Positions 1 to 14,301 of a DNA stretch of 16,617 nt are shown piece after piece. The stretch lies in the IMG/VR virus record IMGVR_UViG_2563366827_000001, one strand, 5' to 3'. The DNA is from a virus. Its lineage: Duplodnaviria; Heunggongvirae; Uroviricota; Caudoviricetes. Every line of letters begins with the position of its first letter. Position 1 is the stretch's first letter. The translations under genes were made by a program, and so were the position numbers. The notes beneath the pieces are model-generated. The model was not told where the DNA came from, searched no databases, and saw only the letters and a list, made by a program, of their open reading frames with translations.

Positions 1-238
1 AAAAGGTTGCTGCTACGATAATGCCTGCGTGGAAAGCTTCTTTCATTCGCTGAAAGTGGAATGTATCCATGGAGAACACTTTATCAGCCGGGAAATAATG
101 CGGGCAACGGTGTTTAATTATATCGAATGTGATTACAATCGGTGGCGGCGGCACAGTTGGTGTGGCGGCCTCAGTCCGGAACAATTTGAAAACAAGAACC
201 TCGCTTAGGCCTGTGTCCATATTACGTGGGTAGGATCA
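1..238 (+). mobile_element. Right end of an IS3-family insertion sequence (most likely IS3 itself), including the terminal inverted repeat ending ...ACGTGGGTAGGATCA at 238
   Basis: The transposase 3' end is followed about 30 bp later by a sequence ending TGTCCATATTACGTGGGTAGGATCA, which matches my recollection of the IS3 right terminus (TGATCC... when read inward). The element boundary is placed at 238. The 3-bp target duplication cannot be checked because the other end is outside the window. Confidence 0.8.
2..208 (+). CDS. IS3 transposase OrfB (InsF-like), C-terminal fragment; 5' end lies outside the window
   Basis: Frame 2 translates without stops to ...[66 protein letters not shown], stop TAG at 206-208. 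This carries the DDE-transposase C-terminal region (the conserved E in a YDNA...ESFF...LK.E context) typical of the IS3 family, and matches my recollection of the IS3 InsF C-terminus. Not in the supplied ORF track because it has no start codon inside the window. Confidence 0.85.
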
Positions 239-548
239 CTCCTCTCCGGAAACCAACTTCCGCCGCCAGTTCAACATCCCGCAACCACCTCAGGCGTTCA
301 GACTACAGTTCTGCCATGTCCCCATATCCCGGCTCGGTGCAAACATTCTGGTTTATCCGTCTAAAAATCCTTAATGTGTAGTGCTGTTGCAACGTCCACT
401 CTTGGCACATAGCAGTCCTAGAGACTGTGGCGTAAAGTCATGGAGGATCGGTGGGAGGAGATGCAAATCCTCCCATACAAAAAATACGTAAAATCGGTAA
501 CGGCTGGAAATCATTCAATACTCGCACTATCGAAAGTTCACCAGCCAA

Positions 549-592
549 CCGCAGCACGTCCTGCATACGTCGTGTCTGCGGTTTTTCTTTTT
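549..592 (+). terminator. Intrinsic-terminator-like hairpin plus T-run, oriented for plus-strand transcripts
   Basis: Stem CCGCAGCACG (549-558) pairs with CGTGTCTGCGG (571-581) with one bulge, followed by TTTTTCTTTTT (582-592). It is the first block of the left copy of the duplicated tfa-3' module. The T-run is on the plus strand, so it would not terminate the minus-strand tfa fragment. Confidence 0.4.
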
Positions 593-595
593 CGC

Positions 596-865
596 TTACA
601 TTGTGTCTGGTTCTTCCGGCCACTCAATATCAGGTGCAGTTGATGTATCAACACGGTTCAGCAACACCCGATATTTATTCCATGCCTCCAGCAACGATCT
701 TTCTTCCTCCGTTGCGATTTCCAGATCTACAGCATCCTGCAGTGGCGCAATATACTCACTGAATTCCTGGATGTAGAACTGTGTGGTGACGGTCTTCCAG
801 CCATTCGGCTCCTGCTGTATCGAAGCATACCAGGCTATTTCAATATCGCTATGCTGCGGCAGCAT
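596..865 (-). pseudogene. Tail fiber assembly protein remnant (5'-truncated tfa homolog, TfaX-like); intact 89-aa ORF
   Basis: The C-terminal 50 residues ([47 protein letters not shown]...) are near-identical to the C-terminus of the full tfa at 1645-2229. The N-terminal part is only weakly similar and the ORF is less than half the length of a normal Tfa. Has ATG at 863-865 with an AAGGGG Shine-Dalgarno 4 nt upstream, so it may still be translated. Confidence 0.55.
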
Positions 866-892
866 TTAACCCCTTGTAATTCATCGCCATAA

Positions 893-921
893 TTGATTTA
901 ATTCACAAATAAAACTATAAC
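893..921 (+). promoter_or_regulatory. Candidate sigma70 promoter for the methyltransferase gene (-35 TTGATT, 17-nt spacer, -10 TATAAC)
   Basis: TTGATT at 893-898 and TATAAC at 916-921 with a 17-nt spacer in an AT-rich stretch. The -10 abuts the first ATG (922), so transcription would start inside or just after it, implying a leaderless or short-leader mRNA that initiates at ATG 934. Pattern match only. Confidence 0.25.
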
Positions 922-1590
922 ATGGTGAAATTAATGAAAAAAAACACAGATGATGGGGCTAAAATTTACACACCACTTACCCTAAAGCTTTATGACTGGT
1001 GGGTTTTGGGAGTATCAAATCGGCTTGCATGGGGATGTCCTACAAAGGAACACCTTCTTCCACACTTTCTGGAACATTTAGGTAACAACCATCTGGATAT
1101 TGGTGTTGGAACTGGGTTTTACCTTACTCACGTACCTGAGAGTAGTCTGATATCTTTAATGGATTTGAACGAAGCTAGCCTGAACGCGGCATCTACAAGG
1201 GCTGGGGAATCAAAAATTAAACATAAAATTAACCATGATGTTTTTGAACCTTATCCCGCGGCGTTACATGGTCAATTTGATTCCATTTCCATGTTTTACC
1301 TTCTTCACTGTCTGCCTGGAAATATATCTACAAAAAGCTGTGTAATACGCAATGCGGCGCAGACCTTAACTGACGATGGAACTCTATACGGAGCCACAAT
1401 TCTTGGCGATGGAGTTGTGCACAATAGCTTCGGTCAAAAACTGATGCGCATTTACAATCAGAAAGGCATCTTTTCAAACACAAAAGATTCCGAAGAAGGC
1501 TTAACACATATACTCTCAGAGCATTTCGAGAATGTTAAAACCAAGGTTCAAGGTACTGTAGTAATGTTTTCCGCTTCAGGGAAAAAATAG
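922..1590 (+). CDS. Putative class I SAM-dependent methyltransferase (phage moron; resembles the ybcY-type gene of DLP12-like prophages)
   Basis: 222-aa ORF, visibly AT-richer than the flanking phage genes. Contains Rossmann motif I LDIGVGTGFY, an acidic end-of-beta2 residue (ISLMDLNE) and motif II/III-like FDSISMFYLLHCLP. No DPPY/NPPY or PCQ/ENV motifs, so not an obvious DNA methyltransferase. No Shine-Dalgarno before ATG 922; a second in-frame ATG is at 934. Confidence 0.75.
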   Translation: MVKLMKKNTDDGAKIYTPLTLKLYDWWVLGVSNRLAWGCPTKEHLLPHFLEHLGNNHLDIGVGTGFYLTHVPESSLISLMDLNEASLNAASTRAGESKIKHKINHDVFEPYPAALHGQFDSISMFYLLHCLPGNISTKSCVIRNAAQTLTDDGTLYGATILGDGVVHNSFGQKLMRIYNQKGIFSNTKDSEEGLTHILSEHFENVKTKVQGTVVMFSASGKK

Positions 1591-1597
1591 CATCCAA

Positions 1598-1630
1598 CCG
1601 CAGCACGTTCTTGCTTAAGACGTGCTGCGG
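1598..1630. terminator. Perfect 11-bp hairpin between the convergent methyltransferase and tfa genes (possible bidirectional terminator or structured element)
   Basis: CCGCAGCACGT (1598-1608) and ACGTGCTGCGG (1620-1630) form a perfect stem with an 11-nt loop, starting 8 nt after the methyltransferase stop and ending 15 nt before the tfa stop. No canonical T-run directly follows on either strand (the minus strand has TTTTTT about 10 nt away). It is the first block of the right copy of the duplicated module. Confidence 0.4.
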
Positions 1631-1644
1631 CATAATCCCAATGA

Positions 1645-2229
1645 TTACTCCCTGACAGGGTTCGTAGGCCACTCAATATCAGGTGCAGTTGATGTATCAA
1701 CACGGTTCAGCAACACCCGATACTTTTTCCAGGCTTCCAGCAATGAGGTTTCTTCCTCCGTTGCGATTTCCAGATCTACAGCATCCTGAAGTGGCGCAAT
1801 ATGCTCACTGGCTACCTGCATCAGGCTGTTTTTTGTTTCTTCCGCCTCCCGGATCCGGAACAGTTTTTCTGCTTCTGCATCTTTCACCCAGGCTGTGCCG
1901 TTCCACTTCTGAAACTCCCCTTCCGGCGATAACCAGGTAACATTTTCCGGTAACGGACCGAGTTCAGAAATAAATAACTCGTCCCCTGACGCTACGTCAT
2001 AAACCGTTTTACCCCGATGGTCTTCAACGAGATGCCACGATGCCTCATCACTGTTGAAAACAGCCACAAAGCCAGCAGGAATATCTGGTGGTGCAATATC
2101 GGTACTGTTTGCTGGCAGACCTGTATGAGGCGGAATATATGCGTCACCTTCACCAATAAATTCATTAGTTCCGGCCAGCAGATTATAAATTTTTATGGTC
2201 CGTGCTTGTTCACTCATTCTGAATGCCAT
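1645..2229 (-). CDS. tfa: Tail fiber assembly protein Tfa (lambda orf-194 type)
   Basis: 194-aa product [51 protein letters not shown]... matches lambda Tfa in length and sequence as I recall it. Its ATG overlaps the stf stop (TAATG), indicating translational coupling. Confidence 0.9.
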
Positions 2230-5189
2230 TATGCAAGCCTCACAATATAGTTAAATGCGATGTTTTTGACGGTGTTTTCCGCGTTACCAGCAGCGTTAAC
2301 GGTGATGGTGTGTCCATGTGAGCCAATCGCAACGGAGTGCGTATGAGCACCAATACCGACAGTATGTGCGTGTGCACCTGCGCTTGCAGCAGTGCCGGAC
2401 AGTGAGTGGGTATGCGCGCCAGCAGAGTTCGTATTCGCCATCGTGCCAATGCCCAGACCAACCGCCCCTTGTACCTGGTATGAGTTACTTCCGACAGCTG
2501 TAGAACCATACTGATAGGTGTCTTTAAAAGTGCTTGTATTAAACCTGCGACCATCAACGTGCGAGTGTGCTCCGGCCGAGCTTGTAGAGCCGCTCAGACT
2601 GTGCGTATGAGCCCCGGTGTTATTCGTGGATTTAGTGCCGTAATCAAACGACGATGTGGTTTTCGTCCCCAAATCCGTACTGGATGCGCTGGCGCTGTGG
2701 GTGTGCGATTTAATGCCGTCCTGTTCCTGAGACAATACGGCACGACCACTGGCGGGTTTGCCCTTAATCGTCCAGCCACGCATATCAGGGATCACGCCTG
2801 ACGGATAAGCGGCTGCAAGTTTCGGGTATGCAGATTTGTCAAAAGTCTGCCCCTGCATCAGGGCATAGCCAGACGGAACGGTATCTGATGGCCACGGGAT
2901 TGGTGCGCCAGGCGGATAAAACTGCTCTGATGGCGTATAGAGTGAATAAACTGTACCGTCCGTTAACCCTTCCGGCTTATTAGCAGAATATGCTGGTGAC
3001 GTATGAATCGTCACGCTGGCATTACTGGTATAATCCCATTGAATATTTACACCAGTCGCATAATTTCCGATTGCAACGTAAATATCGTAAGTATCACCAG
3101 ATGTATTGACCCAGGCAAAATTTGTAAACCCTGTCGATGTGCGCTGCCATAAAGCACCAGTAATCCCCTTCGGATTACCATTACCTGCACGCAAAACAAG
3201 TTCAGATATACCTGCCTGTTGAGGTGACCCCACGTTAAATCCCGCGCCACCAATCAACGTAATTGAAACAACAGAACTCGCCTGTGGCATGGTTACCGTT
3301 GCTAATTTGAACCAACCAGCACCACCGCTGAATGACATTGTTGTTGAGTTAAGCGTACCAATATCTTTCGGCGTCAGTGTTATATCCGCTGAAAGCGCCT
3401 TACCATTCACCTTACGGGCAGAAGGTACCCGACCATTCGCATTATCATTAGCTGCTTTCACTGCTTTCGGTGTCGCGGCAAGCGTTTCAGATGCGCTGTT
3501 GGTTGCACTACTGAGCTGGACAATTCCTTTTTGTGCTGTCGTAGCGTCCTGAGCGGTATATTTCCCGTTAGCAAGGTCATAGGCTGCCTTTACCGACTTT
3601 GGCGTTGCCGCCAGCATTTCAGATGTGCTGTTGGTCGCGCTGCTGAGCTGAACGATCCCTTTCTGTGCTGTCGTTGCATCCTGTGCGGTGTATTTCCCGT
3701 TAGCCAGGTCATACGCGGCCTTAACTGCTTTTGGCGTTGCCGCCAGTGACTCGGAAGTGCTGTTAGTCGCACTGCTGAGCTGTACTATCCCCTTTTTCGT
3801 CGTGCTCGCATCCTCAAGCGCCACGGCGGATGCAATATCCTCTGCCCGTTTAGCTGCTGTCTCGGCGCGCGTTGCCGCGGATTCCGCCGTACTTTTGCTC
3901 TGAGCTGCCGCCGTCGCACTGCCAGCTGCCTCTGTCGCCTTCGTGGATGCCGTCGTGGCGCTGCTCTTCGCTGCTGACGCCTGTCTGGTCGCCTCATCTT
4001 TTGAAGCAGACGCCGATGATGCCGATGACGCCGCCGAACTGGCTGACGATGCGGCAGCCGTTTTTGAGGATTCTGCGCTGGTTTCCGACGCTTTCGCGTT
4101 CGTTTCGGATGTCTTCGCTGCGGAAGCAGAACTCGCTGCTGCGCTGGCCTGTTCAGTGGCTTCGCCAGCCTTCGTTGTGGCTGTTGAAGCGGATGATGCG
4201 GCGCTTTCTGCCGATTTTCCGGCGGCGGTGGCACTGGCTGAGGCCTGCCCGGCACTTGTTGACGCGGCACTGGCAGACGACGCAGCCGCTGTTTTTGAGC
4301 CTGCCGCAGCTGAGGCGCTCTGTCCCGCTGCCGTCTCAGAAGACTTAGCGTTCGTCTCGGACGTTTTTGCCGCCTTCGCGGAATTTCCTGCCGCCGTTGC
4401 CGAGGAAGCGGCACTACTGGCGCTTGATGATGCGTTCGTTTCTGATGATTTTGCCGCTTCTTTTGAAGCCGACGCATCCCGGGCTGAGGTGGCAGCTTCT
4501 GACGCTTTCGTGGTCGCGGTGGATGCAGAAGTGGCTGCTGATTGTTGTGACGCTGCCGCATTCGTTTCTGACGTTTTCGCCGCAGCGGCACTGGTGGCCG
4601 CCGCGCTTTTTGAGGACTCTGCAGCGGCAGCACTTTTTTCCGCTTCAGTGGCCTTTGTTGATGCCGTTCCTGCGCTGGAAGACGCTGACTGAGCCGACGA
4701 CGCGGCCTGTCCGGCTGACGTGCTGGCTGCGCGTGCTGAGCCTGCAGCATCAGTCGCATGGGTTGCCGCCTCACGGGCTGATGTGCTGGCATCGCTGGCT
4801 GACTTCTTCGCGGCTGCCGTGTTCTGTGCCACCGCGGACGCGTTACGCGCCACCTCTTCCACCATCAGTTCAAAACGGCGCAGTGCCTCAGGACGGGCAT
4901 CATCCTCCGTCATGGCACCGAGAAAATCATTCAGCGTACCGGGTCGGGAATCTTCATACACGGTGATGGTCCCGGCATGTGACGGCGGGAAGCCTTCCAC
5001 CAACAGAATAACGCTGTACTGACCGTACTCAACGTCCATGCTGTAACGCCCGGCTTCATCCGGATTTTCTGAGGCCAGCGTGTTCACCACCACCGTGGTA
5101 CTGTTACGTTTTGCTTTCAGCTGGATTGTGCAGTTCTGTACCGGTTTTCCTGTGCCGTCTTTCAGTACACCTGAAATCTTTACTGCCAT
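2229..5189 (-). CDS. stf: Side tail fiber protein Stf (long lambda-Stf-like variant, about 986 aa)
   Basis: N-terminus [26 protein letters not shown]... matches the lambda Stf N-terminus. Followed by a long Ala/Ser/Thr-rich low-complexity region, three tandem repeats of about 44 aa ([42 protein letters not shown]), and a C-terminal tip with GAHTHSLSG / [31 protein letters not shown] HxH repeats ending [11 protein letters not shown]. The track ORF begins at GTG 5195; I place the start at ATG 5187-5189. Confidence 0.9.
3430..3800 (-). repeat. Three tandem repeats of about 130 bp inside stf (coding for the 44-aa tail-fiber repeat)
   Basis: Near-identical DNA blocks such as GTATTTCCCGTTAGC.AGGTCATA.GC.GCCTT.ACTG.TTTTGGCGTTGCCGCCAG recur three times, corresponding to the [15 protein letters not shown]... 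protein repeats. In-frame and coding, not a CRISPR array. Confidence 0.7.
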
Positions 5190-5200
5190 ATTCACCCCAC

Positions 5201-5253: not shown

Positions 5254-5853
5254 TCAGAATTTATAACCGACACCCACGATGAAACCGTCAGTGCGCCAGT
5301 CGCCACTGCCGGAGCCTTCATAAGCAATATCAATGGCCACGGATTCGGTCGGGTTAAACTGCACGCCAGCTCCCCACGCCAGAGACGTGTTGCTGTGGCG
5401 ACCGTCATCACTTCCGGTCAGCACGTCGTGCGTTTTCCCCTTGTTGTCAGTTACGCGGAGATAATCCCCGGAGAAAGTCGACACACGGCTGTAAGACACA
5501 CCCGCCATCGCATACGCGCTGAACCATTCATTCACGCGCACAGACGGCCCCGCCATCACGCTGAACCAGCGGTTACGCACGGAATCTTCATGCCAGCGGA
5601 TATCGCTGTAACGGGTAAGCTGGCGATTCTTGTCTCCTGCATAGCTGAATGACGTCACCAGCCCCAGTGTGTCCGTAAACTCATAACGGTATTTCACGTT
5701 AATCCCGTTCAGATCATCGCTGCCGGGAACGTTCGTCGAGGCATGAAGATACCCCGCGCTCAGCGTGGACTGATGTTCAGATGCCCATGCAGACGCACCG
5801 GATACGGCCAGACAAATAGCTGCGGACAAAATGGCTGCATAAAGTTTACGCAT
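5254..5853 (-). CDS. lom: Lom outer-membrane protein (Ail/OmpX/PagC family moron)
   Basis: 199-aa product with an N-terminal signal peptide ([24 protein letters not shown]) and a beta-barrel-like alternating pattern ending ...[10 protein letters not shown] (C-terminal aromatic residue). Sits between J and stf as in lambda, flanked by terminators. Confidence 0.9.
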
Positions 5854-5923: not shown

Positions 5924-8900
5924 TCAACGAATACTGATACCGGAAGCCGCTTTTTTGGTCACAATCACCGTACAGTCGGTGATATTCCCTGCCCCCTGAT
6001 TGCCTTTCTGGAAAATCTTAAACTCCAGAGTGACGCTACCACCACCACTAGGCATATCAATAACTGCACTGTAACTACCGGGAATGGCCCCTTTAGTTTC
6101 TCTGGATGCGATTAATACACCGTTTTTGCGAACTTCAAAACCATAACCCGTGTATCTTGTACCTCCCGGGTTATTACCACTTCCCGGATCGCTATACGCT
6201 ATTCCGTTAAAGATAATGGGCGGAATAATGATTTGACGGTCAAAGTTATGATCATCGCTGATGGTGACTGTAACCGTCCCGTTTGGTGTTTCCGTATTAC
6301 CCCACGTACCAGCCTGTTTCGGGAATGATTTGGATACAGCTTTAACGAAGTCACCTCTGACCTGAGTCGCCTCCAGCATGCCCTTAATCGTACAGTTTTC
6401 ATTTACCGTGACATTGTTGAGCGTCCCGGCGTTCGCATTCACTCTGCCACTGATATCCGCATTTTTAGCGGTCAGCTTTCCGTCTGATGTCAGGGAAAAT
6501 ACCGGAGGACTGCCACCGCTGGTAATGGTGGGGGCTGTCAGGCGCTTCAGGAACACGTCGTTCATGAATATCTGGTTGCCCTGCGCCACAAACATCGGCG
6601 TTTCATTCCCGTTTGCCGGGTCAATAAACGCGATACGGTTAGCGGCAACCAGAAACTGGCTCAGCTTGCCTTCCTCCGTGTCCTCCATGCTGAGGCCAAT
6701 ACCCGCGACATAATGTTTGCCGTCTTTGGTCTGCTCAATTTTGACGCCCCACATGGCATTCCATTTATCGTTAGCGTCCTTCCACTCTTTCGAAAACTCA
6801 TCCAGTCTGCTGGCGTTATCCTCCGTCAAATCAACTTTTTCCAGCAGCTCTTTACCGAGATGGGATTCGGTTATCTTGCCTTTGAAAAAATCCAGGTAAC
6901 CTTCCGCATCATCGCTCGCCCGACCGACGCCCTCCACGAATGCCGATTTGCCAACGGTGTTCACACTGCGGATATAAAAGTAATAATCATGGCCCGGTTT
7001 GATATTGATACTGGCGGCTATCCAGTACAGCGCCGTACCAAGATAGCGGGCTGTGGTTTCAACCTGCCTGATATCGGTAATCCGCTTTTCCGAGAACCAG
7101 AACTCAAACTGTACCGTCGGGTCATAAACGGCAAGATGCGGCGTGGCGGTTATCTGAAAATAGCCCGGCGTCAGCTCAATCCTCGACGGTGCTGCCGGTG
7201 CGGCAATCCGGAACGATACCGACGCCGGATCGCCCTGCTGCCCCCACGCATTTACCGCCCGGACTGTCAGCCTGTAGTTCCCCAGCGCCAGTTGCGTGAA
7301 GCGGTATGTGGTTTCCGTCGTCCGGGCCGTGCTGACCAGCCGCTCACTGCCGTCATCCGCTGTTACGGTCAGACGGAGCAGGAAGCTCACGCCCTTCACC
7401 ACCTTCGGCGTGTCCCAGCGCGCCAGCACCTGATATTCCCCGCTGTCTGCGGTGACTTCGGCGGTCAGGTGCTGCACCGCTGGCGGCGTGACACCATTCA
7501 CCGTGCCGCTCTGGTCGCCGTCAAAGTGCGCCCCGTTATCCACGATGGCTTCTTTTTCCGGTACATGCTGCACGGCAGTGATGGCATACGTGCCGTCATC
7601 GTTATCACGGATACTCACACAGCGGAACAGGCGCTGACGCAACGTCGGCAACTTCAGCCCCCACACACTGTATTCTGCAACGCCGTCAGGAACCCGGTTC
7701 ACTTTCACCTTAAGTCCGTCGGTGACGGACTGAACCTCCACGCTGACCGGATTACCACTTCCGTCAACCAGGCTTATCAGCGTGGTACCGGAGGATGGCA
7801 GCGTGATTTCACGGTCGAGCGTCAGCGTCCGGGTCTGGCTGTTCACCGCCAGCACGCGACCACCGGTGCTGATACCGGCATAGTCATCATCGAAGATTTC
7901 AATAACATCGCCCGGTACATGGCGAAGCCCTTCAGCACCCACGCTGAAATCCACGGTCTGCGTCTCCAGCAGTTCCGTTTTAATCAGCCACAGCCCGGCG
8001 CGGTGTGCCTGCCCCCGGCTGGTACAGCCAAAGGCATCCATCTTCGTGACATTACGACCGTAACGGGCAATGGCCTGCGTATCTTCAACAAGCTCTGTCG
8101 CCGTCTCCCAGCCGTTGTTCGGGTCAATCCAGTTCACCTCAACGGCATTATGGCGGTCCTTCAGGGCGCTGAAGCTGTAGCGGAACGGCGCGCCATCATC
8201 CGGCATCACCACATTACTGCGGTTATAGGTCCACACCTTATCTGATGGTCGGTCCTGCACGAACGTCAGCGTCTGCCCGTTCCATACCGGCATACAGCGC
8301 ATCGCCGAGCAGAAATCACTGAGCACATCCCACGCCTTGCGCTGTGTGGTCAGGTATGCATTACAGGTGATGCGCGGCTCCGTGCCGCCAAAGCCGTCCG
8401 GTACTGACTGGTCGCAGTACTGGCCGATGACATACAGCGCCCATTTGTCCACATCCGCCGCACCAAGACGTTTCCCCATGCCGTAGCGTGGATGGGTCAG
8501 CATATCCCACAGACACCAGGCCATGTTGTTGCTGTATGCCGGTTTAAACGTTCCGTCCCAGATACCGCTGTATTGCCGCGTCTGCGGGTTATAATTCGAC
8601 GGCACCTGCAGAATACGCCCGCGCAGATGATAATTACGGCTCACCTGCTGGCTGCCGAACTGCTCCGAGTCCACCTGCACGCCGACCAGTGCCGTGTTCG
8701 GGTAGCACTGTTTCACATCGATAATTTCGGTGTATGACGACCAGAGCGTTTTGTTCTGCAGCTGGTCTGTGGTGCTGTCCGGCGTCATCCTGCGCATCCG
8801 GATATTAAACGGGCGCGGCGGCAGGTTATCCACCACCACCGAGGCCAGATACTGCGAGGTGGTTTTGCCCTTAATGGTGATGTCTTTTTCCGTCACCCAG

Positions 8901-9337
8901 CCACCGTTACGTTGTATCTGAACCAGCAGACGGACTTCCGACGGATTCCTGTCACCCTTTGAGGTGGTTTCCACCAGTGCCTGTACACCGAAGGTAAAGC
9001 GCAGACGGTCGATGTTTGCAGACGTAATGGTGCGGGTGATCGGCGTGTCATATTTCACTTCCGTACCCAGCACCGTCTCGGAGCCGGAGGATTCAAACCC
9101 CTCCGGCGGTGTCTGCTCCTGCTCACCGGCACGGAACACCACCGTGATACCGGAGATGTTGGTATTCCCCTCAGTGTCCAGCACCGGCGTACTGTTCAGC
9201 AGCACGCTTTTTAATCCATCCACCGGACCTTCAACCGGCCCTTCGCTGATGGCATCGATCACACTCAGCAACTGCGTGGACTTCAGGTTGTCCTTCGCTT
9301 CGCGCGGGGTATGCCCCTTACTGCTTCCTTTACCCAT
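5924..9337 (-). CDS. J: Tail tip / host specificity protein J (central tail fiber), 1137 aa
   Basis: N-terminus [34 protein letters not shown]... and most of the length match lambda J as I recall it. The last roughly 130 aa (...[27 protein letters not shown]...[11 protein letters not shown]) look different from my recollection of the lambda J receptor-binding C-terminus. Confidence 0.95.
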
Positions 9338-9360
9338 TCCTCACGCTCCATAAATGACAA

Positions 9361-9378
9361 AACCGCCCGCAGGCGGTT
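9361..9378 (-). terminator. Terminator-like hairpin in the 60-nt I-J intergenic gap (possible attenuator)
   Basis: On the minus strand, AACCGCC-TGCG-GGCGGTT stem-loop followed by TTGTCATTT, then the GAGGA Shine-Dalgarno and the J ATG. Structure seen in sequence; function is inferred. Confidence 0.3.
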
Positions 9379-9397
9379 TCACATAAAACATTTTGCA

Positions 9398-10069
9398 TCA
9401 GCGACCAATCACCACAACCTGACCACCGTCCCCTTCGTCTGCCGTGCTGATCTCCTGAGAAACCACCCGTGACCCCACGCGCATTTCACCATACAGAACA
9501 GGCAGAACATTGCCCTGGGCAACCATGTTATCCAGTGAGGAGAAATAGGTGTTCTGCTTACCGTTATCCGTTGTCTGTGTACGGGGAGTTCTGGCTTTCG
9601 GTGCCAGCATCTGCGCCACACCACCGAGCACCATACTGGCACCGAGAGAAAACAGGATGCCGGTCATACCACCGGCCCCAATGGCTGCCCCCCATGCTGC
9701 AAGGGTGGCTCCGGCGGTAAAGAATGATCCGGCAATGGCGGCAGCCCCCAGGACAATCTGGAATACGCCACCTGACTTGGCCCCGGCGACTCTGGGAACA
9801 ATATGAATCACAGCGCCATCAGGCAGAGTCTCATGTAACTGCGCCGTTAACCCGGACGTGCTGACGTCCCGCCCGGCAATCCGTACCTGATACCAGCCGT
9901 CGCTCAGTTTCTGACGAAACGCCGGGAGCTGTGTGGCCAGTGCCCGGATGGCTTCAGCCCCCGTTTTCACACGAAGGTCGATGCGACGACCAAATCGTTG
10001 TAAATCCCCGTAAAGGCAGATGCGCGCCATGCCCGGTGACGCCAGAGGGAGTGTGTGCGTCGCTGCCAT
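9398..10069 (-). CDS. I: Tail tip assembly protein I (223 aa)
   Basis: 223-aa product MAATHTLPLASPGMARICLYGDLQRFGRRIDLRVKTG... with a hydrophobic glycine-rich segment, same length and position as lambda I. The 5' end overlaps the K 3' end by about 100 nt in a different frame, as in lambda. Confidence 0.9.
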   Translation of the reverse strand: MAATHTLPLASPGMARICLYGDLQRFGRRIDLRVKTGAEAIRALATQLPAFRQKLSDGWYQVRIAGRDVSTSGLTAQLHETLPDGAVIHIVPRVAGAKSGGVFQIVLGAAAIAGSFFTAGATLAAWGAAIGAGGMTGILFSLGASMVLGGVAQMLAPKARTPRTQTTDNGKQNTYFSSLDNMVAQGNVLPVLYGEMRVGSRVVSQEISTADEGDGGQVVVIGR

Positions 10070-11414: not shown

Positions 11415-11743
11415 CAGTTCACCACCTGTTCAAACTCTGCGCTGAACTCAACACGCAGCATACTGACCCGCGACGACCATTTTGCGCAGGTCACCTTTAT
11501 CTGCCGCCACTCATAAGGCGGCGTCCACAGAAAGGATTTCCAGCCCCCGTGCTCTTCCAGAAACGACTCCAGTACCGTGGCCTCCTCACGGGGGACAGAA
11601 AGCGTCACGCTGTACGTTTTCAGGTTGGCATTCAGCCCGGCAGGCGCTCGCTGGGAATAGCCATCACCAAAGCGCACCTTTCTTACAGAAGGGGCCGAAG
11701 CCACATCCATACCGGGTTTCACTTTCCAGCGGAAGGTTTTCAT
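11414..11743 (-). CDS. M: Tail tip protein M (109 aa)
   Basis: 109-aa product MKTFRWKVKPGMDVASAPSVRKVRFGDGYSQRAPAGLNANLKTYSVTL..., same length and position as lambda M. ATGA start/stop overlap with H. Confidence 0.95.
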   Translation of the reverse strand: MKTFRWKVKPGMDVASAPSVRKVRFGDGYSQRAPAGLNANLKTYSVTLSVPREEATVLESFLEEHGGWKSFLWTPPYEWRQIKVTCAKWSSRVSMLRVEFSAEFEQVVN

Positions 11744-14301
11744 CGTCCACCTCCGGAGAACAGGCCACCATCACGCATCTGTGTCTGAATTTCATCACGG
11801 GCACCCTTGCGGGCCATGTCATACACCGCCTTCAGAGCAGCCGGACCTATCTGCCCGTTCGTGCCGTCGTTGTTAATCACCACATGGTTATTCTGCTCAA
11901 ACGTCCCGGACGCCTGCGACCGGCTGTCAGCCAGACTGCCCGGTGTACCGACATAACCACCGGTGGCATAGCCGCGCATCAGCCGGTAGAGATTCCCCAC
12001 GCCAATCCGGCTGGTTGCCTCCTTCGTGAAGACAAATTCACCACGGTGAACAATCCCCGCTGGCTCATATTTGCCGCCGGTTCCTGTGAATCCTCCGGTT
12101 GCAAAATGGAATTTCGCCGCAGCGGCCTGAATGGCTGTACCGCCTGACGCGGATGCGCCGCCACCAACAGCCCCGCCAATGGCGCTGCCGATACTCCCGA
12201 CAATCCCCACCATTGCCTGCTTAAGCAGAATTTCTGTCATCATGGACAGCACGGAACGGGTGAAGCTGCGCCAGTTCTGCTCACTGCCGGTCAGCATCGC
12301 CGCCATATTCTGCGCAATACCATCAAAGGTCTGCGTGGCTGCACTTTTTACCTGCGACATACTGTCCGTGGCGCTCTCTTCCCACTCACTCCAGCCGGAC
12401 TTCAGGCCTGCCATCCAGCTCCCGCGAAGCTGGTCTTCAGCCGCCCAGGTCTTTTTCTGCTCTGACATGACGTTATTCAGCGCCAGCGGATTATCGCCAT
12501 ACTGTTCCTTCAGGCGCTGTTCCGTGGCTTCCCGTTCTGCCTGCCGGTCAGTCAGCCCCCGGCTTTTCGCATCAATGGCGGCCCGTTTTGCCCGTTGCTG
12601 CTGTGCGAATTTATCCGCCTGCTGCGCCAGCGCGTTCAGGCGCTCCTGATACGTAACCTTGTCGCCAAGTGCAGCCAGCTGGCGTTTGTACTCCAGCGTC
12701 TCATCTTTATGCGCCAGCAGGGATTTCTCCTGTGCAGACAGCTGGCGACGTAGCGCCGCCTCCTCCAGTACCGCGAACTGACTCTCCGCCTTCCACAAAT
12801 CCCGGCGCTGCTGGCTGATTTTCTCATTTGCTCCGGCATGCTTCTCCAGCGTCCGGAGTTCAGCCTGAAGCGTCAGCAGGGCAGCATGAGCACTGTCTTC
12901 CTGACGATCGCCCGCAGACACCTTCACGCCGGACTGTTTCGGCTTTTTCAGCGTCGCTTCATAATCCTTTTTCGCCGCCGCCATCAGCGTGTTGTAATCC
13001 GCCTGCAGGATTTTCCCGTCTTTCAGTGCCTTGTTCAGTTCTTCCTGACGGGCGGTATATTTCTCCAGCAGCGTCTGCAGCCGTTCGTAAGCCTTCTGCG
13101 CCTCTTCGGTATATTTCAGCCGTGACGCTTCGGTATCGCTCTGCTGCTGCGCATTTTTGTCCTGTTGAGTCTGCTGCTCAGCCTTCTTTCGGGCGGCTTC
13201 AAGCGCAAGACGGGCCTTTTCACGATCATCCCAGTAACGCGCCCGCGCTTCATCGTTAACAAAATAATCATCCTTGCGCAGATTCCAGATGTCGTCTGCT
13301 TTCTTAAACGCAGCCTCTGCCTTAATCAGCATCTCCTGCGCGGTATCAGGACGACCAATATCCAGCACCGCATCCCACATGGATTTGAATGCCCGCGCTG
13401 TCCTGTCTGCCCAGGTCTCCAGCGTGCCCATGTTCTCTTTCAGGCGGCGGGTCTGGTCATCAAACCCTTTCGTCGCGGCCTCGTTCGCCGCCTGCAATGC
13501 CCCGGCTTCATCGCCGGAACGCTGCAACTGAGCAACATACGCAATCTGCTCCGCCGTCACGTTATGGAACTGGCGTGCCATCGCTGTCAGCCCTGACGTC
13601 GGGTCTGTGGTCAGCTTCCCGAAGGCTTCAGCGACCTTGTCCACCTCCACGCCGGATGCAGAGGAGAAACGCGCCACACTCTGGCTGATGGACGCAATCT
13701 GAGCCTCACCGCTTACCCCCGCCTTAACCAGTGCGCTGAGTGACTCGCTGGTCTGGTTAAACGTCAGCCCTGCCGCCTGCCCGGCTCTGGACAGGACCAG
13801 CATACGATCTGCCGTCAGTCCCGCCTGATTGCCGGAAAGGACCAGCGTTTTGTTGAAATCGGACAGGGTTGAGTTGCCCTGATACCAGGCATACGCCAGC
13901 GCACCGGTCGCCACCGCCAGCGAGGTGGCCCCCACCATCGGCAGGGTGATCGCACCGGCAATCCCCCTGAACATGGGGATCATCCCGCCGAAGGAGTCCT
14001 TCACCTGCCCCCCCTGTTGCAGCAGGATCAGCCACGGACTTTGCCCGCCTGCAAGCTGCGTGGCCACGTCGGTGAACTGTGCAGGCAGCATACGCATGGC
14101 GGCTTTATACTGCCCGACGGAAATCCCCGCTTTCTGTGCAGCCAGCGCCTGTCGGCTCAGCGACTGTTCAACGACTGCCGCTGTTTTTTTCGCATCACTT
14201 TCCGTACCGGAAAAATGACGCCTGACTCTGGCCATCTGCTCGTCAAATCTGGCCGCATCCAGACTCAAATCAACGACCAGATCGCCTACCGGTTCAGCCA
14301 T
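11740..14301 (-). CDS. H: Tail tape measure protein H (853 aa)
   Basis: 853-aa product, the same length as lambda H, with a long coiled-coil-like central region and a Gly-rich C-terminal part. Begins 8 nt before the end of T, as in lambda. Confidence 0.95.
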   Translation of the reverse strand: MAEPVGDLVVDLSLDAARFDEQMARVRRHFSGTESDAKKTAAVVEQSLSRQALAAQKAGISVGQYKAAMRMLPAQFTDVATQLAGGQSPWLILLQQGGQVKDSFGGMIPMFRGIAGAITLPMVGATSLAVATGALAYAWYQGNSTLSDFNKTLVLSGNQAGLTADRMLVLSRAGQAAGLTFNQTSESLSALVKAGVSGEAQIASISQSVARFSSASGVEVDKVAEAFGKLTTDPTSGLTAMARQFHNVTAEQIAYVAQLQRSGDEAGALQAANEAATKGFDDQTRRLKENMGTLETWADRTARAFKSMWDAVLDIGRPDTAQEMLIKAEAAFKKADDIWNLRKDDYFVNDEARARYWDDREKARLALEAARKKAEQQTQQDKNAQQQSDTEASRLKYTEEAQKAYERLQTLLEKYTARQEELNKALKDGKILQADYNTLMAAAKKDYEATLKKPKQSGVKVSAGDRQEDSAHAALLTLQAELRTLEKHAGANEKISQQRRDLWKAESQFAVLEEAALRRQLSAQEKSLLAHKDETLEYKRQLAALGDKVTYQERLNALAQQADKFAQQQRAKRAAIDAKSRGLTDRQAEREATEQRLKEQYGDNPLALNNVMSEQKKTWAAEDQLRGSWMAGLKSGWSEWEESATDSMSQVKSAATQTFDGIAQNMAAMLTGSEQNWRSFTRSVLSMMTEILLKQAMVGIVGSIGSAIGGAVGGGASASGGTAIQAAAAKFHFATGGFTGTGGKYEPAGIVHRGEFVFTKEATSRIGVGNLYRLMRGYATGGYVGTPGSLADSRSQASGTFEQNNHVVINNDGTNGQIGPAALKAVYDMARKGARDEIQTQMRDGGLFSGGGR

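Follow-up and report, generated by a model that had tools for sequence, protein, structure and literature searches.

An intact ybcY allele in the accessory region of a lambdoid prophage, predicted to encode a class I methyltransferase

Introduction

Which gene is it that lies, AT-rich and on the opposite strand, beside the tail fibre genes of a lambdoid prophage, and on what would its product act? The question arises at the IMG/VR record IMGVR_UViG_2563366827_000001. The whole stretch analysed here (16,617 nt, hereafter the window) is the tail end of such a prophage, with the phage genes reading on the minus strand. An uninterrupted open reading frame (ORF) of 222 aa lies on the plus strand (922..1590). 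A previous interpretation, made from the letters alone and here called the sequence-only reading, had seen in this ORF a horizontally acquired cargo gene (moron) with the signature of a class I methyltransferase dependent on S-adenosylmethionine (SAM). The ORF is present as described and the quoted motifs can be read in the 222-aa translation: LDIGVGTGFY at residues 58-67, ISLMDLNE at 77-84 and FDSISMFYLLHCLP at 119-132.

The explanation that best accounts for the whole of the data, and which we consider probable, is that the gene is an intact allele of Escherichia coli ybcY, carried as a lysogenic-conversion moron and encoding a class I SAM-dependent methyltransferase of the cytoplasm, about 218 aa long. 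As a sequence finding this was to be expected, and the very widespread orphan enzyme is already annotated. Were its activity defined, thousands of proteins annotated as 'class I SAM-dependent methyltransferase' would gain a function.

Results

The open reading frame is an intact allele of ybcY

Database comparison placed the ORF in a family of known sequence. The DNA is 99.9% identical to loci encoding WP_000239874.1, a protein annotated as 'class I SAM-dependent methyltransferase'. The translation matched phrog_2132 ('unknown function') over its full length (residues 5-222, E 1e-155) and passed the Pfam gathering cut-offs of Methyltransf_12 (E 3.7e-9), Methyltransf_23, Methyltransf_25 and Methyltransf_11. 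Profile searches had been proposed as a check on the methyltransferase assignment, and the matches to Pfam and the best matches to profiles of PDB entries were methyltransferases. Because of the Pfam and phrog_2132 matches and of the ratios of nonsynonymous to synonymous substitution (dN/dS) described below, the ORF is not a chance ORF.

Comparison with E. coli K-12 revealed the identity of the gene. Window positions 619-2083 share 97.6% DNA identity with the tfaX-ybcY-tfaD segment of prophage DLP12, located between appY/tfaX and nohD. The order in DLP12 is appY, a tfaX remnant, ybcY, a tfaD remnant and nohD, and RefSeq marks K-12 ybcY as 'frameshifted'. The lesion is a 2-bp deletion at the position corresponding to window 936-937. 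Gene, locus and family are thus the same, with the reading frame intact here and broken in K-12, as the sequence-only reading had supposed when it named a ybcY-type pseudogene in DLP12 and advised a comparison of alleles. The surroundings differ. On the right, the gene is followed here by a full tfa and then by the complete stf-lom-J tail module, and on the left the locus is cut by a copy of IS3. We conclude that the ORF is an intact allele of E. coli ybcY, a known gene already annotated under the names ybcY, WP_000239874.1 and phrog_2132.

Of the 5,426 complete E. coli genomes compared, 3,797 carry matching DNA, which places the methyltransferase gene among the most widespread prophage cargo genes of this species. 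K-12, with its frameshifted copy, is a natural null for ybcY. The statement of the sequence-only reading that the function of ybcY is not known agrees with the literature, where we found incidental mentions of ybcY and no functional study. No paper citing the RefSeq protein WP_000239874.1 was found, and a literature search for methyltransferase morons beside tfa returned nothing relevant.

The coding sequence most likely starts at ATG 934

For the analysis of the reading frame and of the locus we used 80 related IMG/VR loci, to which all counts of viral loci refer. ATG 934 was kept in all 80, and ATG 922 was changed to ACG in eight. Furthermore, residue 5 of the 222-aa translation is the point where all homologues and the PHROG profile begin. 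Since these observations agree, the coding sequence most likely extends from 934 to 1590 and would encode 218 aa. Hence the extent of the ORF given by the sequence-only reading holds, and its start at 922, which is also the RefSeq start (222 aa), is probably 12 bp too early. Residue numbers below are those of the 222-aa translation.

A run of eight A (ATGAAAAAAAAC, window 934-945) comes directly after the probable start codon, and the 2-bp deletion of K-12 lies at the edge of this run. With the frame open in 80/80 viral loci, nothing points to frequent slippage. A 45-aa ORF on the minus strand (1535-1672) runs across the hairpin behind the methyltransferase gene and into the 3' end of that gene; RefSeq lists it as 'hypothetical protein' or 'nucleocapsid protein', and it is most likely a spurious gene call.

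Fold and motifs predict a class I SAM-dependent methyltransferase

The AlphaFold2 model of the protein (mean predicted local distance difference test score 90.9) has the canonical class I strand order, with a seven-stranded sheet and flanking helices. The model consists of the catalytic core only, with a helical lid at the N-terminus and an insertion that follows strand 5. Motif I follows strand 1 (D59-I-G61-V-G63-T-G65), and G61, G63 and G65 are invariant among close relatives. D81, the acidic residue that ends strand 2, is invariant across 92 diverse relatives and aligns with the region of the ribose-binding Asp of CysG. The motif after strand 4 reads LLHCLPG. In relatives of about 35% identity, Y16, Y24, W37, C39, H57, D81, H129, C130, K138, N186 and D189 are invariant or nearly so. 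Judged by modelled fold and SAM-binding motifs, the protein is a class I SAM-dependent methyltransferase.

The top Foldseek matches were PmtA, PfPMT, JHAMT, NodS and CysG (E 1e-12 to 1e-10, template modelling (TM) score 0.55-0.67, 13-21% identity). A profile built from the 92 sequences and compared with the PDB gave CysG/BelI as the best match (E 1e-6), with NodS and XrdM also among the best and RsmC as a weak match (E 0.002). The viral fold library BFVD returned generic methyltransferases only.

A small-molecule or lipid-type acceptor is favoured

The sequence-only reading had expected a small molecule, RNA or protein as substrate. The nearest structures are small-molecule or lipid methyltransferases, and we lean towards an acceptor of this type. 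A clearly smaller share of our expectation goes to RNA or protein and about half of that share to acceptors that we do not assign; DNA receives next to none. The methyl group would pass from SAM to a small polar metabolite or to a lipid head group. The acceptor pocket may be lined by the N-terminal helix (Y16, Y24, W37, C39), by H129-C130 after strand 4 and by the N186/D189 loop. As the family travels alone and no partner gene is conserved, the acceptor would be expected to be present in every host already, or to be an external compound.

Within the small-molecule class, two types of chemistry are about equally compatible, namely N-methylation of an ethanolamine-type amine by a Tyr and a His, as in PmtA and PMT enzymes, and metal-assisted O-methylation of a carboxylate, as in CysG/BelI. 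PmtA (8YS9), the bacterial R-type phosphatidylethanolamine N-methyltransferase, and phosphoethanolamine N-methyltransferases such as PfPMT of Plasmodium (3UJ7) were the top Foldseek matches (E 2.5e-12 to 1e-10, TM 0.61-0.67); they are similar in size to the ybcY product and share 15-17% identity with it. The catalytic layouts Tyr10/His117 of PmtA and Tyr19/His132 of PfPMT resemble Y16/Y24 and H129 of the ybcY product, an equivalence by spacing only. The NCBIfam PmtA model (PLipidMtase_Leg) gave 16.3 bits against a cut-off of 390, and we found no evidence of methylated phosphatidylethanolamine in E. coli carrying a ybcY-type gene.

CysG and BelI (PDB 9FCD, 9FCE) are metal-dependent carboxyl O-methyltransferases of cystargolide and belactosin biosynthesis, with about 17% identity to the ybcY product. 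In CysG a calcium site made of His, His and Asp positions the substrate carboxylate (PMC11408123). Alignment with hhalign (probability 97.5%) put H129-C130 on the two His metal ligands, so that the second ligand is His in CysG/BelI and would be Cys in the ybcY product. On account of this alignment, the metal-assisted type is our single best guess, a weakly supported one. There are further differences: CysG holds the substrate carboxylate with Arg22, whereas our comparison rests on the His-Cys alignment, and CysG/BelI belong to biosynthetic clusters, whereas the ybcY-type gene stands alone. The invariant D189, tried as the match of CysG Asp191 using hhalign with the supplement sequences (PMC11408123), is at most a candidate, as the C-terminal half was aligned without confidence.

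More doubtful is the further idea that the family forms an unrecognised metal-assisted class in which His-Cys replaces the His-His of CysG, travelling as single-gene cargo and methylating a common metabolite or a membrane lipid head group. If this were true, the class would ride on mobile DNA of host-associated bacteria, namely on lambdoid prophages (about 70% of complete E. coli genomes), on the Klebsiella hypervirulence plasmid beside rmpA and on Erwinia plasmids, and would change fitness in the host.

Several findings speak against a firm assignment of acceptor and chemistry. Structural similarity was flat over dozens of methyltransferases with different substrates (11-21% identity), and the tRNA enzymes CmoA, Trm9 and METTL6 scored nearly as well in the structural comparison. 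NCBIfam matches to CpaM, RquA and PmtA were far below the cut-offs. In the C-terminal half, where the alignment is poor, Asp191, the third metal ligand of CysG, finds no confident counterpart. Moreover, we found no characterised family member in the literature, and activity and substrate rest on inference only.

Part of these findings bears on the alternative that survives best, namely that the protein methylates RNA (tRNA or rRNA) or a protein. A universal macromolecule as acceptor would also explain a stand-alone cassette, and the weak RsmC match in the profile search points the same way. However, the model is a bare 218-aa core with an N-terminal lid and has no RNA-binding or substrate-recognition domain, enzymes acting on small molecules or lipids head both the sequence and the structure matches, and the fusion of one relative to a cytochrome P450 likewise points towards chemistry on small molecules. 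We therefore regard an RNA or protein acceptor as rather unlikely and keep a small molecule or lipid as the favoured class. Among distant relatives, rare fusions join the methyltransferase domain to a cytochrome P450 (719 aa), to a PilZ domain (388 aa) and, in a lichen fungus, to RCC1 repeats (743 aa). As a general clue to the substrate, fusion partners were rejected, being too rare and too varied.

The family is self-sufficient single-gene cargo under purifying selection

Comparison of the gene with homologues in other genera gave dN/dS values of 0.21 for Citrobacter, 0.17 and 0.10 for two homologues in Salmonella, 0.11 each for two homologues in Enterobacter and 0.13 for Klebsiella. The methyltransferase gene is thus under purifying selection (dN/dS 0.10-0.21). 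The GC content was 0.35-0.44 in all copies compared, and 0.47 in a more distant Salmonella homologue for which dS was not estimable.

The family comprises 193 representative clusters when the cut-off is E <1e-30 and 796 when it is relaxed to E <1e-10, and occurs in at least 600 species of many phyla. The settings of its members have no relation to each other. Lone chromosomal genes were found in Enterobacter and Salmonella, relatives of 79-89% identity lie in plasmid, insertion sequence (IS) and island settings, and one homologue is carried on a 35-kb Erwinia plasmid. For a neighbour test we took 80 loci from 80 species and clustered all adjacent ORFs. In these loci no conserved functional partner was found. 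Apart from generic short-chain dehydrogenases (12 loci) and LysR regulators (9 loci), both at variable positions, no neighbour recurred. We conclude that the family is self-sufficient single-gene cargo.

A member of the same family is found in Klebsiella pneumoniae (WP_011251259.1 / BAH65943.1), with 64-66% identity over the full length and all conserved residues shared. Like the gene in the window it is an AT-rich (GC 0.35) single gene on mobile DNA, but its carrier is a plasmid and not a prophage. About 600 Klebsiella IncFIB/IncHI1B plasmids carry a homologue directly beside rmpA. The Klebsiella homologue has been statistically associated with liver-abscess isolates (PMC5126061), which is expected from linkage to rmpA and iro. 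A defined activity would show whether this association is causal or only linkage. On the hypervirulence-type plasmid NZ_CP144338.1 of K. pneumoniae, a 65%-identical homologue (8995-9648) comes last in the order iroBCDN, peg-344, rmpC, rmpD, rmpA, methyltransferase. A second class I SAM-dependent methyltransferase is annotated about 9 kb away (18082 onward), and tblastn gave two places per plasmid in most such Klebsiella records.

Two further settings were observed. In contigs of Salmonella enterica, IS fragments flank a 79%-identical copy that has a PerC-family regulator gene upstream and an autotransporter gene nearby, which is another virulence-island-like setting. The pVAPB plasmid of Prescottella equi carries a 34%-identical relative (6962-7723) in the vap pathogenicity island, divergent from a LysR regulator. 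In this relative HLEVGARSAW stands in place of the GxGxG motif, and both the Asp of strand 2 and the Cys from the His-Cys pair are lost; from these changes it looks like a catalytically dead pseudo-enzyme.

The gene may have its own promoter and be silenced by H-NS

Genomic SELEX (systematic evolution of ligands by exponential enrichment) with the RpoD holoenzyme located a site in the ybcY-tfaX spacer of K-12, flagged as H-NS-bound, with the predicted promoter TTGATT-17-TATAAC (PMC3946193). The same hexamers are found in the window (Table 1), and in 20 of the 80 viral loci the -10 element is the consensus TATAAT. The methyltransferase gene would then be transcribed from its own predicted promoter in the 56-bp upstream spacer. 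Because the K-12 spacer binds RNA polymerase and H-NS, it would probably be silenced by H-NS unless repression is relieved. An alternative promoter-like site lies further upstream, and a leader starting from it would hold a GGTGA Shine-Dalgarno sequence (924-928).

Not everything fits this picture. The -10 element directly abuts ATG 922, so that the promoter assignment and the leader are uncertain, and the mRNA would be nearly leaderless for ATG 934. At the other end of the gene, the hairpin between the convergent stop codons has no U-tract behind it on the plus strand of the window. K-12 manages without the gene, and the binding of H-NS suggests that the gene is silent under laboratory conditions.

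This leads to the question whether the gene, although intact, is an unexpressed and functionally irrelevant hitch-hiker with the prophage accessory region. The reported H-NS binding at the K-12 promoter region (PMC3946193) would fit such a passenger, as would the loss of the gene from K-12 with no known consequence and the lack of any reported phenotype in the literature found. In contrast, the low dN/dS across genera indicates long-term purifying selection, and the putative active-site residues are invariant in relatives of only about 35% identity. Furthermore, the frame is open in every viral locus, while the adjacent truncated tfa remnant (tfa') was cut to <86 aa in 13 of 68 loci. We consider a mere passenger improbable, and a maintained methyltransferase remains the preferred reading.

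The hairpin behind the gene is strong on both strands, with folding energies of -23.9 (plus) and -28.5 (minus) kcal/mol and z scores of -5.9 and -4.7, respectively, and it was present in 80/80 viral loci. A terminator scan of the window gave no match. Where the right flank is a different one, T-rich sequence follows the hairpin. At window 547-594 on the plus strand there is a second copy of it, followed on that strand by UUUUUCUUUUU (-19 kcal/mol, z -3.6). This copy has the look of a canonical intrinsic terminator that would act on rightward transcription coming in from the accessory region; its long loop is the reason why the consensus scan missed it.

The gene moves as part of a block of about 1 kb

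The methyltransferase gene is convergent with full-length tfa, as the sequence-only reading had described, and divergent from tfa'. Its GC content is 0.406 (0.352 at third codon positions). Across 751-1500 the GC content is 0.40-0.41. The tail genes on either side have 0.47-0.55, and stf reaches 0.63 in its interior, so the AT-richness noted before was seen again. When set against DLP12, the phages ev243 and Kati, and other prophages, the window shows 97-98% identity from about 619/641 to 1630, and the flanks diverge beyond these points. Within the block, tfa' adjoins the methyltransferase gene in 77 of 78 viral loci with room for tfa'. The right flank is as in the window in 53/80 loci and something else in 27/80. 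In ev243 and Kati the block shares the accessory region beside the integrase with ompT and an appY-like regulator, and in ev243 the gene stands beside a different tail-fibre module. The moving unit is thus a block of about 1 kb that contains the tfa' remnant, the methyltransferase gene and the hairpin and that recombines into different prophage contexts. The description of the gene as wedged between tfa genes is right for the window but not in general, since the left tfa is a truncated remnant and the right flank varies.

The moron claim of the sequence-only reading was judged reasonable, given the AT-rich gene and the published RNA polymerase and H-NS site in the ybcY-tfaX spacer. Regarding composition, the gene contrasts with the surrounding phage genes (GC 0.41 versus 0.47-0.63). 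Regarding independence from the phage backbone, the block occurs with varied tail-fibre modules and right flanks, and close relatives are found on plasmids and islands. Regarding signals of its own, the gene lies on the strand opposite to the tail operon and has the candidate promoter and the hairpin described above, the latter with no U-tract here. The methyltransferase gene is probably a lysogenic-conversion ('moron') gene in the prophage accessory region, beyond the side tail fibre genes.

Its place next to tfa and a tfa remnant might also suggest a role in the tail fibre, with the enzyme modifying Stf or Tfa or acting in virion assembly. Yet the gene is on the strand opposite to the late tail operon, tfa is missing from the right flank in about a third of the viral loci (27/80), the ev243 copy stands beside other tail-fibre genes, and relatives of 56-89% identity occur in non-phage contexts, which together make such a role very unlikely. 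Least probable of all is a DNA methyltransferase shielding phage or host DNA from restriction: orphan DNA methyltransferases are frequent in phages and share the fold class, but the 222-aa sequence has no (D/N/S)PP(Y/F/W), PC/PCQ or ENV motif (DPPY/NPPY and PCQ/ENV had already been reported as lacking) and no target-recognition domain, no DNA enzyme was among the top structural or sequence matches, the PADLOC defence models gave one negligible match (E 0.0026), and homologues stand alone in chromosomes and plasmids with no restriction partner.

Table 1. Coordinates of the methyltransferase gene and of neighbouring features in the window.
Feature	Position	Strand	Basis
Methyltransferase coding sequence, most likely extent, 218 aa + stop	934..1590	+	ATG 934 conservation, Pfam, phrog_2132, dN/dS
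Candidate sigma-70 promoter TTGATT-17-TATAAC	893..921	+	same hexamers as K-12 SELEX prediction (PMC3946193); hexamer assignment is a prediction
Alternative promoter-like site TTAACC-16-CATAAT	866..893	+	consensus scan; site count not above shuffle expectation
Strong hairpin between convergent stop codons of methyltransferase and tfa; right end of mobile block	1598..1630	.	folding energy, homology break at 1630
tfa, full-length tail fibre assembly, 194 aa	1645..2229	-	Caudo_TAP E 2.7e-45, phrog_105, annotation in 99.6%-identical locus
tfa', truncated remnant, tfaX-like, 89 aa	596..865	-	Caudo_TAP C-terminal part only, phrog_2341 full length
Direct repeat, left copy (tfa 3' end)	618..772	.	partner 1667..1821, 92% identity, 1049-bp spacing
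Direct repeat, right copy, inside full-length tfa	1667..1821	.	partner 618..772

Neighbouring features of the window

Beyond the methyltransferase gene the window follows the lambdoid tail gene order on the minus strand: H (11740-14301), M, L, K, I, J (5924-9337), lom (5254-5853), stf and tfa. The tail annotation, including stf (2229-5195, 988 aa), was taken from a 99.6%-identical E. coli locus. RefSeq marks tfa' as incomplete. In addition to the long direct repeat (Table 1), there is a short one (542-562 / 1591-1611) over the region of the hairpin, and the repeats bracket the methyltransferase gene.

To the left of tfa', the accessory region is cut by the 3' end of an IS3-family transposase (ORF 29-208) with a terminal inverted repeat (window 1-238); matching DNA is annotated as 'IS3-like element IS3 family transposase'. 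This left arrangement (IS3 end, 239-400, tfa') was found in no complete E. coli genome of the collection. Within stf, a long low-complexity tract rich in Ala, Ser and Thr (window 3600-4900, minus strand) reaches a GC content of 0.63 with a strongly negative AT skew, and toward the C-terminus of the protein there are three near-identical repeats of about 45 aa each.
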